Origin: an uncultured Chitinophagales bacterium
GTDB lineage: Bacteria > Bacteroidota > Rhodothermia > Balneolales > HLUCCA01
Assembly (NCBI GenBank): GCA_964509715.1
Contig: CAZDYD010000003.1
Coordinates: forward strand, 1,436 to 65,435
Direction of reading: 5' to 3'
DNA: 64,000 bases
Below the pieces are notes generated by a model. The model was not told where the DNA came from, searched no databases, and was given only the letters and a program-made list of their open reading frames with translations. The position numbers and the translations under genes are program-made. Positions 31,317-33,097 of the stretch are shown one piece after another (the stretch's first letter is position 1; each line of letters begins with the position of its first letter).

Positions 31317-33002
31317 ATGATCATTTTAGGAATTGCAAACGACGAAACAGCAAGTGCAAGTATCATCGTCGACGGAAAATTGATAGCAGCAGCAAGCGAA
31401 GAACGCTTTACTCGCATCAAAATGGACAACAACTGGCCAGAGCATAGCGTAAAGTTTTGTCTGGAATCTGCCGGCATCACATTGGATCAAATCGATGTAA
31501 TTGCATACGGCTGGAGTGCCGGATTCAATGCTGAGAAGCATTTGTTGTCTTATCATGACCGTATAGTGTATGAGGCCATGCATAATCCGGAAGGGTTGGA
31601 GACATTTCGTGAGCGTATTGCCACCGAAATAGAGCAGGATCGTCGCAAACGCGATGAATATCATGCTTTTGTGGTACAAAATAATCTTCAACAAAAATCT
31701 GTAAGTATTGATCACCACGAAGCTCATGCATATTCAGCATACTGTTTCTCCCCATTTGAAAAGTCATTGGTGGTAACAAGTGATGGACGTGGTGACTTCA
31801 TGTCGGTAACCGTCAGCTATTTTACACCTGACAAGATGGAAATGCTGTATCAGGGATCCAGTACCGATAGTCTTGGTTTCTTCTACGGTAGAATTACGGC
31901 ACTGCTCGGATTTACTCCTCACAGACATGAGGGTAAAGTTACTGGTTTGGCGGCTCACGGTAATCCTGAAAAGCTTTTGCCAAAAATGCGCGAAATGATT
32001 TATGTGAAAGATGGAAAAGTGTATGGAAAGTCAGGCGAGTTATTCCGACCATTCTATAGTAATTTCAGTGATGAGCTCAAACAGTTGATAGCTAACAACA
32101 CTCGGGAAGATGTCGCTGCTGCTGCCCAGGTGCATCTTGAAGAGTGTATTACTGAATTAGTTACATACTATGTACATCAAACCGGTGCTGAATATGTGTG
32201 TATGGCCGGTGGGGTTTTTGCGAATGTACGCGTCAACCAATGCGTGATGGAGATTCCCGGTGTGAAGAATATTTTTATACAACCACAGATGGGTGATGGT
32301 GGACTGTGTATAGGTGCTGCGGCTGGATATCTGTTCGAGAATGGACATCCAAAAATACAATGGGACAATATGTATCAAGGTCCCGAATTTACCGACGATC
32401 AAATCGAGATTGAACTAAAAAAAGTACCTTCTATTGTATATCAGAAATCTGAAAATGTAGTAAAAGACGTTGTCGAAGCAATCAAGAACAACAAAGTTGT
32501 GGGACTTTTCCAGGGTCGGATGGAGTTTGGTCCACGTGCGTTGTGTAATCGTAGTATTATTTACCACTGTCGTGATAATAGTGTGAATGATTGGTTAAAC
32601 CACAGAATGGATCGAACCGAGTTTATGCCATTTGCACCGGTATCGATGGATGACGTGGCCAAAGATTGTTACATTGGATGGGAGCCTGATCATATCGCCA
32701 GTCGATATATGACTGTAACCTATGATTGTACCGATTTTATGAAAAAAATGGCCCCTGCCGCAGTTCATATTGATGGTACGGCCCGACCACAGGTTGTCAG
32801 TCCGGATGGGAATCCGCTGATGTACGATATTCTCAGATCCTGGCACGAAGCAACTGGCGAACCTGCACTTATCAATACTTCATTCAACCGCCATGAGGAA
32901 CCGATTGTACATCATCCGCGTGAGGGTGTAGATGCGTTGGCGACAAACATCATTGATGTGCTGGTTATTGGGAATTATATAGCGGTGAGCAGGGAGCGGT
33001 GA
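31317..33002 (+). CDS. NodU/CmcH/TobZ-family carbamoyltransferase (copy 1)
   Basis: ILGIANDETASASIIVDGKLIAAASEERFTRIK start, metal site IDHHEAHAYSAY, 561 aa, and the C-terminal YrdC-like half (NTSFNRHEEPIV). Confidence 0.9.
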   Translation: MIILGIANDETASASIIVDGKLIAAASEERFTRIKMDNNWPEHSVKFCLESAGITLDQIDVIAYGWSAGFNAEKHLLSYHDRIVYEAMHNPEGLETFRERIATEIEQDRRKRDEYHAFVVQNNLQQKSVSIDHHEAHAYSAYCFSPFEKSLVVTSDGRGDFMSVTVSYFTPDKMEMLYQGSSTDSLGFFYGRITALLGFTPHRHEGKVTGLAAHGNPEKLLPKMREMIYVKDGKVYGKSGELFRPFYSNFSDELKQLIANNTREDVAAAAQVHLEECITELVTYYVHQTGAEYVCMAGGVFANVRVNQCVMEIPGVKNIFIQPQMGDGGLCIGAAAGYLFENGHPKIQWDNMYQGPEFTDDQIEIELKKVPSIVYQKSENVVKDVVEAIKNNKVVGLFQGRMEFGPRALCNRSIIYHCRDNSVNDWLNHRMDRTEFMPFAPVSMDDVAKDCYIGWEPDHIASRYMTVTYDCTDFMKKMAPAAVHIDGTARPQVVSPDGNPLMYDILRSWHEATGEPALINTSFNRHEEPIVHHPREGVDALATNIIDVLVIGNYIAVSRER

Positions 33003-33097
33003 GCGGGGAGCGGGAAGAAAGAGCAGATAGCAGAAAGCGGAGAGCGGGGAGCGGGGAGCGGTGAGCGAGGAGCGGTGAGCAGAGAGCAGATAGCGGG
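32980..33097 (+). repeat. Imperfect tandem heptanucleotide array, 17 units, consensus GAGCGGN
   Basis: Read directly: TAGCGGT GAGCAGG GAGCGGT GAGCGGG GAGCGGG AAGAAA GAGCAGA TAGCAGA AAGCGGA GAGCGGG GAGCGGG GAGCGGT GAGCGAG GAGCGGT GAGCAGA GAGCAGA TAGCGGG. It spans the TGA stop (33000-33002) of carbamoyltransferase 1 and ends 33 nt before the pseI ATG. Confidence 0.95.

Follow-up and report, generated by a model that had tools for sequence, protein, structure and literature searches.

A stop-spanning heptanucleotide array upstream of pseI is probably a solo member of a dispersed, lineage-restricted repeat family in a Bacteroidota genome

The 64,000-nt stretch of DNA analysed here (the window), from an uncultured Chitinophagales bacterium, contains a purine-rich array of 7-nt units that runs across the stop codon of a carbamoyltransferase gene and into the gap before pseI, which encodes a NeuB-family sugar synthase. 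We find that this array probably belongs, as a 'solo' copy, to a dispersed and lineage-restricted family of purine- and G-rich heptanucleotide arrays (long simple-sequence repeats), without dedicated regulation of pseI. The family is new in sequence and of a known repeat kind, and the most economical reading is that of a tolerated, fast-evolving repeat, sited and oriented for least harm. The array is one of about 39 of similar make-up in the genome, the majority of which begin at stop codons, and so is not a switch specific to the sugar operon. Both of its natural alleles keep the enzyme domains and the pseI leader, and no on/off switching is apparent. This removes the tempting, unsupported idea of a repeat switch controlling pseudaminic-acid genes.

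The array is 118 nt long with its purine-rich strand as the sense strand, starts in codon 555 of the 561-amino acid (aa) carbamoyltransferase, and takes up 96 of the 128 bases of the carbamoyltransferase-pseI gap (Table 1). Tandem Repeats Finder (TRF) placed it at 32981-33096 with period 7, 16.7 copies, 74% matches and 1% indels, and found no other long period-7 array in the window. Parsing in AGC phase gave 17 units, including one 6-nt unit (AGAAAG) within an irregular block at 33009-33021. Because the Pfam match to Carbam_trans_C ends at residue 555 of 561, the last 7 codons of the enzyme and its TGA are encoded by the array. TRF, the sequence, the open reading frames (ORFs) and Pfam thus bear out an earlier sequence-only reading of this DNA, which had described a 17-unit GAGCGGN array spanning the stop codon and filling most of the gap. 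The same reading held that nothing similar occurs elsewhere, which is right for the window by TRF and wrong for the genome, where four consecutive GAGCGGN units (at most two mismatches) match 143 times compared to 0 times for a reversed control pattern.

We found about 39 purine-rich heptamer array loci, after merging unit types, in the draft genome that contains the window (G000; 2.55 Mb in 141 contigs, 43% G+C, with the window in contig C3). Units of the window type occur in 26-36 of these arrays depending on the detector, and a phase-aware scan returned 36 in-phase AGCNG arrays. Genome-wide, period 7 is the commonest TRF period (52 rows), the dominant unit classes being AGAGCGG and AGCGGGG, followed by AGGGATG and AATAGGG. 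Membership of a dispersed genome-wide family, which had been named beforehand as a finding that would speak against a locus-specific role, is therefore what the genome displays, and the proposal of such a role is not supported.

Heptamer arrays hold 5 of the 15 scaffold gaps in the assembly and two contigs end within such arrays, so the true number and length of arrays are underestimated. An apparent class of paired perfect 55-nt arrays 100 nt apart was rejected, as these proved to be 100-N scaffold gaps inside long perfect arrays; the gaps in question (100 N each) lie at C11:4780-4879, C40:22731-22830, C46:8498-8597, C46:10128-10227 and C85:1710-1809, and four of the five are flanked by perfect 55-nt arrays. 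Some arrays are far longer and more homogeneous than the assembly displays, and heptamer arrays of this kind should be expected to break short-read assemblies. The 28.4-kb contig C32 is particularly repeat-dense, with seven heptamer arrays alongside tandem repeats of periods 315, 291, 144, 120, 105 and 72 nt; these longer-period repeats probably lie in very large repetitive protein genes.

When we compared the flanks of the array loci, only array units matched and no conserved non-repeat ends were found. The sequence-only reading had raised a family akin to repetitive extragenic palindromic (REP) sequences. In enterobacteria, REP sequences and bacterial interspersed mosaic elements (BIMEs) are extragenic; REPs fold into hairpins as imperfect palindromes, and REP-associated tyrosine transposases (RAYTs) mobilise them. 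The heptamer arrays resemble them as a dispersed mosaic family at gene 3' ends and between co-transcribed genes, away from promoters, but are strand-asymmetric and non-palindromic and lack conserved flanks. With neither a palindromic core, nor conserved ends on these strand-asymmetric, purine-rich arrays, nor, for the window array, a fold better than that of shuffled sequences, we rejected a REP element or a transposable element of the miniature inverted-repeat kind.

An irregularity within the arrays offers a view of how they spread. The window array is one of 15 that share an irregular 13-nt 'punctuation' unit, AGCRGGAAGAWAR; the corresponding motif AGC[AG]GGAAGA[AT]A[AG] has 17 occurrences in the genome, 15 of them in arrays. 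Alignment on this motif revealed that at most loci with a readable array start the punctuation is separated from the non-repeat flank by exactly four or five heptamers, that AGCAGAT-type units often follow it, and that several arrays of the family terminate in AGCGG(G/T)T or AGCGGTG. Independent slippage cannot yield the same phase-breaking irregularity at many loci, which points to the copying of arrays, or of modules of them, from locus to locus within the species' lineage, through conversion or insertion. In a comparison of the four genomes of the genus (G000 and the congeners G001, G002 and G003), an extended punctuation pattern was found 18 times in G000 and 0 times in G001-G003. At one locus, in contig C33, a two-module array follows the stop codon in G000 and orthologs in all three congeners have no comparable tandem array at that position; instead, purine-rich sequence comes after a hairpin-like inverted repeat in G002 and G003, and G001 carries neither. 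By sequence comparison, this points to a gain of the C33 array and not mere remodelling.

Two further observations concern these loci. An ordinary stem-loop follows the stop in the C33 orthologs L080 and L082 where G000 has its array. At C41:1157-1352, two tandem copies of a 47-nt unit adjoin an oppositely oriented array; the unit consists of four heptamers, a AGCGGGAAGAAAA block and AAATAC, and so forms a higher-order repeat built from the module.

The arrays are strongly anchored at stop codons. Measured from the 5' end of the purine strand, 24 of 37 arrays start at, or no more than 10 nt from, the stop of a co-oriented gene, compared to 6.2 expected under a null that assigns random positions and orientations inside the same intergenic regions; none of 200,000 simulations reached 24. 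The arrangement of flanking genes is also biased (chi-square p = 3e-4), with convergent contexts enriched (12 arrays vs 5 expected) and divergent contexts depleted (2 vs 9.9 expected). Between same-direction genes, 15 arrays are sense and 6 antisense, a trend only (p = 0.08), and a first pass found just 1 of 38 arrays close upstream of a co-oriented start. As a gauge of a replication-strand effect, the purine strand coincides in 28 of 38 arrays with whichever strand is locally richer in G, a measure confounded with gene orientation. Stop-anchored arrays follow genes for alanine dehydrogenase, inositol-1-phosphate synthase and a chorismate-binding enzyme, and one precedes the gene for ribosomal protein L31.

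Reading frames behave very differently on the two strands. In 27 of 38 arrays no frame of the purine strand is free of stops, so that sense-oriented frames entering an array close after a few codons, as they do at the window locus, where all three purine-strand frames hit a stop inside the array. The pyrimidine strand is stop-free in every frame in 32 of 38 arrays and therefore gives rise to long spurious ORFs on the opposite strand. The 74-aa minus-strand ORF through the window array owes its open frame to this property and is most likely not a gene. For annotation, the warning is that heptamer arrays rewrite the C-terminal tails of proteins and create false antisense ORFs.

Strong stop anchoring with a sense-strand bias is also the pattern that favours a functional post-stop element. 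Here, the G-rich sense strand would form a quadruplex or R-loop, or bind a protein, and so make RNA polymerase pause or shield the upstream mRNA. In a second form, the complement, C-rich and poor in G, would serve for Rho loading on antisense transcripts and so shelter the gene from convergent transcription. The four to five G-tract units that precede the punctuation at most readable loci fit such a role, since a quadruplex needs a minimum of four tracts, and 15 of 38 arrays contain canonical G3+ quadruplex motifs, of which there are 40 genome-wide. Three species of the genus also retain arrays at shared junctions. At the window, however, the evidence runs the other way. The array has no canonical quadruplex motif, (G3+N1-7)x3 G3+, only two-tetrad motifs, and its predicted RNA fold is no better than those of shuffled sequences (minimum free energy, z = +0.9); the G-rich structure earlier suggested for the transcript is not supported. 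The carbamoyltransferase-pseI gap contains no terminator-like site in a search for intrinsic terminators, with promoter-like matches at background level, and Rfam returned no match at E up to 1 across 32700-33400.

Ribosome sequestration by Shine-Dalgarno (SD)-like motifs, also proposed from the sequence, fared no better. Bacteroidota are generally expected to make little use of SD sequences, and in this genome SD-like 4-mers lie upstream of 18% of predicted starts compared to 11% of random 15-mers, with none ahead of pseI. Given this low usage and the SD-less pseI leader, sequestration is unlikely. Several broader observations also speak against a post-stop element: the window array sits inside an operon-like string of genes, where termination would be harmful; one natural allele is about twice as long as the other, and the punctuation is missing from one of them; unit sequences vary freely between species; and 6 of the 21 arrays between same-direction genes are antisense. 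In the G-rich heptamers of Xanthomonas and Nostoc, four units are likewise the preferred number, a point in favour of the functional reading, but Rehm et al. found no regulatory role for their repeats (PMC4692102). We therefore consider a functional post-stop element, in either form, improbable, and a tolerated array most likely has no dedicated regulatory function for pseI.

Alleles of the array were located in assemblies of other samples through the PseI protein of the window, which is 100% identical in 12 contigs. Samples that contain the species are ERZ869903/905/927, SRR12149427, SRR9899532/534, SRR9674392 and SRR21722012. Four other assemblies have the 17-unit allele, identical or with one base changed. 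Two runs have an 8-unit allele, and a third contig begins inside the array with a matching 3' part. The 8-unit allele is 62 nt shorter, equal to eight 7-nt units plus a 6-nt unit, with some units rearranged, and one of the two natural alleles lacks the punctuation unit. Flanks are 99.1-99.7% identical between alleles, so change in the array by far outpaces that in the neighbouring DNA. Other array loci, reached by exact protein matches to their neighbouring genes, range from constancy to several forms: the C41 locus has 16 vs 10 units between strains, the C87 locus shows several variants, and the C77 locus is identical in three assemblies. We rejected the explanation that the short allele is an assembly artefact. 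Its junction sequence is absent from the long allele, and therefore does not reflect a k-mer mis-join; it also recurs in independent runs, with single-nucleotide polymorphisms in the flanks.

These alleles answer the earlier proposal of length polymorphism across strains in the affirmative, with 17 vs 8 units in conspecific assemblies, and they bear directly on a contingency locus, in which slipped-strand changes in unit number would switch or tune carbamoyltransferase or PseI and hence the surface glycan (phase variation). The setting, a pseudaminic-acid-type glycan cluster, is suited to such a switch, the unit length is not divisible by 3, and the two length alleles among near-identical strains do alter the protein. 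As anticipated, copy number changes both the C-terminal tail of the carbamoyltransferase, which is 568 aa ending in IAVSGERGAVSGER in the 8-unit allele vs 561 aa ending in IAVSRER in the 17-unit allele, and the spacing to pseI (45 vs 128 nt). However, the Carbam_trans_C domain is complete in both alleles, and the 32-nt A-rich leader ahead of the pseI ATG is the same in both.

Contingency loci of Haemophilus, Neisseria and Campylobacter resemble the window array in their tandem short units and strain-variable number, here beside surface-glycan genes, but they are homogeneous repeats in the 5' coding region or promoter, where unit number switches expression. The window array is degenerate, begins at residue 555 of 561 after Carbam_trans_C and thus beyond the complete catalytic domains, and neither natural allele truncates the enzyme or alters the pseI leader. 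Since each frame meets a stop before the array ends, neither truncation nor loss of carbamoyltransferase follows from any allele. Stop-anchored arrays also follow ordinary metabolism genes, and with units matching at only 74%, the caution already voiced in the sequence-only reading, that degenerate units argue against classical phase variation, holds. A contingency locus is thus very unlikely.

The genus comparison shows the same junction in different states. In G001 the orthologous junction is free of arrays, with 3 nt between the stop and the pseI start; in G002, four 8-nt AGCGGGNN units directly follow a TAG; in G003, GGGAGTG-type units are followed by GCGAGCG-type units. The congener carbamoyltransferases align with the window enzyme only to residue 555-556 and have short, dissimilar tails, so the array overwrote a poorly conserved C-terminus. 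Arrays also follow the same genes at other loci in G002 and G003, with units of 7 or 8 nt; they are unlike in unit, length and orientation, and inverted pairs occur among them. In the C87 orthologs L031 (G002) and L033 (G003), a purine-rich array and its pyrimidine-rich complement adjoin directly, in that order, and could pair into a long hairpin. For the genes flanking the C12 and C56 arrays, we found no orthologs in the congeners. Within the genus, three of four genomes contain four consecutive GAGCGGN units, whereas all 37 genomes searched from other genera of the order lack them. A sample of 400 genomes from the phylum added only four other genomes with such a run, and the reversed control was about equally frequent there.

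Together our results suggest a sequence of events in which array segments would spread from one locus to another, through either ectopic gene conversion or the insertion of a pre-formed module, and their length would then be altered by replication slippage or unequal recombination. Selection would retain only copies that do little harm, lying behind a gene's functional part and clear of promoters, and oriented so that an entering reading frame closes within a few codons. At the window locus, the array would have replaced the last few poorly conserved residues of the carbamoyltransferase together with its stop, stretching a formerly tight junction (3 nt in one congener) to 45-128 nt.

Several points weigh against this account. 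A filter that tolerates arrays anywhere in non-coding DNA predicts weaker anchoring than the placement of 5' ends exactly at stops that we observe, and this anchoring could reflect a targeted insertion mechanism or a post-stop function. That three species of the genus have arrays at one shared junction could likewise mean selective maintenance, and the neutrality of the array is something that we infer. The data have their own limits, as the placement statistics use crude gene calls (ORFs of at least 100 aa, giving 90% coding), the length variants come from assemblies rather than raw reads, and G000 is only about 70% complete.

The origin of the arrays may lie with a second type of locus. G000 has two genes of the PF05635/TIGR02436 family ('23S rRNA IVS protein', Avd-like), which encode four-helix-bundle proteins, and both lie between inverted heptamer arrays (Table 1). 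The arms of these cassettes have units of the GGGATGA and AGCNGNG types, the two main types of solo array (9-10 and 26 loci, respectively), and the left arm of the C32 cassette carries the punctuation motif. Across 24 PF05635 loci in 13 genomes (G000 and 12 relatives), arrays of 6-9-nt units are present on both sides in 16, on one side in 4 and on neither in 4. Cassette arm units in G003 and G002 resemble the solo arrays of the same genome, as matched by eye. In G001 we found no PF05635 match, no GAGCGGN array, and no array at six of seven orthologous junctions examined.

These observations raise the possibility that the window array derives from a PF05635 cassette, as a solo arm or an offshoot, with heptamer arrays serving as inverted cassette arms and the gene-end solo arrays spawned by cassettes or converted from their arms. 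Each of the above correspondences favours it: the bracketing of both PF05635 genes in G000, the shared unit types and punctuation motif, the recurrence of two-sided arrays in other genomes, the like units within G003 and within G002, and the joint lack of cassette and arrays in G001. Judged on sequence, they are suggestive of a common origin of solo arrays and cassette arms. The window array, however, is a single direct array that does not bracket a PF05635 gene; no cassette is near it, the genome's only PF05635 genes being on C31 and C32, and simple excision of inverted arms cannot leave a direct-repeat scar. Just four genomes of the genus enter the comparison, with units matched by eye, and a search for reverse transcriptase (PF00078) found none in the 70%-complete genome. 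The dependence could also be reversed, with cassettes settling in pre-existing arrays. We regard the cassette-offshoot explanation as possible though on balance doubtful; it concerns origin and is compatible with a tolerated, dispersed repeat.

A more specific form, which we hold only tentatively and think unlikely, is that gene-end arrays propagate with four-helix-bundle cassettes and not as independent products of slippage, the solo arrays of a genome having the unit types of its own cassette arms and the copied unit being the species-specific module of four to five heptamers plus AGCRGGAAGAWAR. If true, a new cassette-linked mechanism would seed 7-nt arrays right after stop codons. One search of the literature returned nothing that connects four-helix-bundle genes with heptamer arrays.

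Heptamer arrays with similar habits are known from distant bacteria. Rehm et al. 2015 described G-rich heptamers, GGGAATC in Xanthomonas and GGGGAYT in Nostoc PCC 7120, at many loci per genome and mostly intergenic, lying within 50 bp of a stop on the sense strand or overlapping it (PMC4692102). These repeats are rare between divergent genes, keep their position while varying in length among relatives, prefer four units, and are associated with all functional classes of genes with no regulatory role demonstrated (PMC4692102). The G000 arrays share the 7-nt period, G-richness, multiplicity of loci, mostly intergenic location, preference for four units, stop-proximal placement on the sense strand, rarity between divergent genes, presence at the same junctions in related species with varying length and sequence, and association with all gene classes. 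By its tandem unit, many loci, stop-proximal sense placement and variation among relatives, the family qualifies as a long simple-sequence, G-rich heptameric repeat. The differences are a GAGCGGN unit in the phylum Bacteroidota, many units with only GG tracts, a window copy without the canonical quadruplex that defines a sub-class of Rehm et al., a shared 13-nt punctuation unit pointing to inter-locus copying, and a four-helix-bundle cassette link not described in PMC4692102. Stop-anchored, sense-oriented G-rich heptamers of the Xanthomonas and Nostoc kind are thus extended to a genus of Bacteroidota.

As summarised in PMC4679880 and PMC4692102, Mrazek 2007 found heptanucleotides to be the most abundant long simple-sequence repeats (5-11-nt units) in bacteria, with a sporadic, lineage-specific distribution and polymerase slippage proposed as the driver. 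In those summaries the work is a statistical survey in which neither stop-codon anchoring nor shared irregular units are described. To the question of why 7-nt repeats are common between bacterial genes, our analysis adds two observations, an irregular unit shared between loci, indicating inter-locus copying, and array units that match cassette arms of the same genome.

Heptamers near starts form a separate group. MacGregor 2015 reported intergenic TAACTGA direct repeats of up to 43 copies in Beggiatoaceae, Cyanobacteria and five Bacteroidetes, mostly a few nt upstream of start codons in forward orientation (PMC4679880). Intergenic heptamer direct repeats, including in Bacteroidetes, are common to both systems, but the G000 arrays avoid start-proximal sites, abut stops and have a different unit sequence. 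The short tandemly repeated repetitive (STRR) sequences of Calothrix PCC 7601, reportedly described by Mazel et al. in 1990, are said to comprise several tandem heptamer families dispersed in the intergenic DNA of heterocystous cyanobacteria. Membership there is set by unit sequence (CCCCAGT, TTGGTCA or CAACAGT), unlike the AGCGGNG/AGCAGAT units found here in another phylum.

Table 1. Features of the window locus and of the two PF05635 cassettes (positions refer to the window unless a contig is given).
Feature	Position	Strand	Basis or details
Carbamoyltransferase gene, 561 aa	31317..33002	+	ORF; Pfam Carbam_trans_N + Carbam_trans_C
Heptamer array, 17 units AGCGGNG/AGCAGNN (GAGCGGN in shifted phase)	32981..33098	+	TRF, sequence, unit parsing
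First sub-array, four heptamer units ahead of punctuation	32981..33008	+	Punctuation-anchored alignment
Carbamoyltransferase stop TGA, formed across two array units (GGTGAG)	33000..33002	+	
Irregular 13-nt punctuation unit AGCGGGAAGAAAG	33009..33021	+	Common to many arrays of the genome
Second sub-array, 11 units, last two AGCAGAT AGCGGGT	33022..33098	+	Unit parsing
A-rich pseI leader, 32 nt, without SD motif	33099..33130	+	
NeuB-family (PseI-like) sugar synthase gene	33131..34189	+	Pfam NeuB and SAF
74-aa ORF through pyrimidine-rich strand of array	32965..33189	-	ORF list
PF05635 cassette, locus L083	C31:20198-20817		Arms 56 nt, 89% complementary, 475 nt apart
PF05635 cassette, locus L084	C32:19160-20500		Arms 59 nt, 78% complementary, 1166 nt apart

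Beyond the array, in a comparison that took in loci L003, L004, L015 and L016, the carbamoyltransferase has its closest homologs outside the genus in metagenome-assembled genomes of Balneolaceae and Rhodohalobacter, at 69-70% identity, and other genera of the same family have only paralogs that are 33-36% identical. This pattern of homologs hints at a possible lateral transfer of the sugar-modification cluster.

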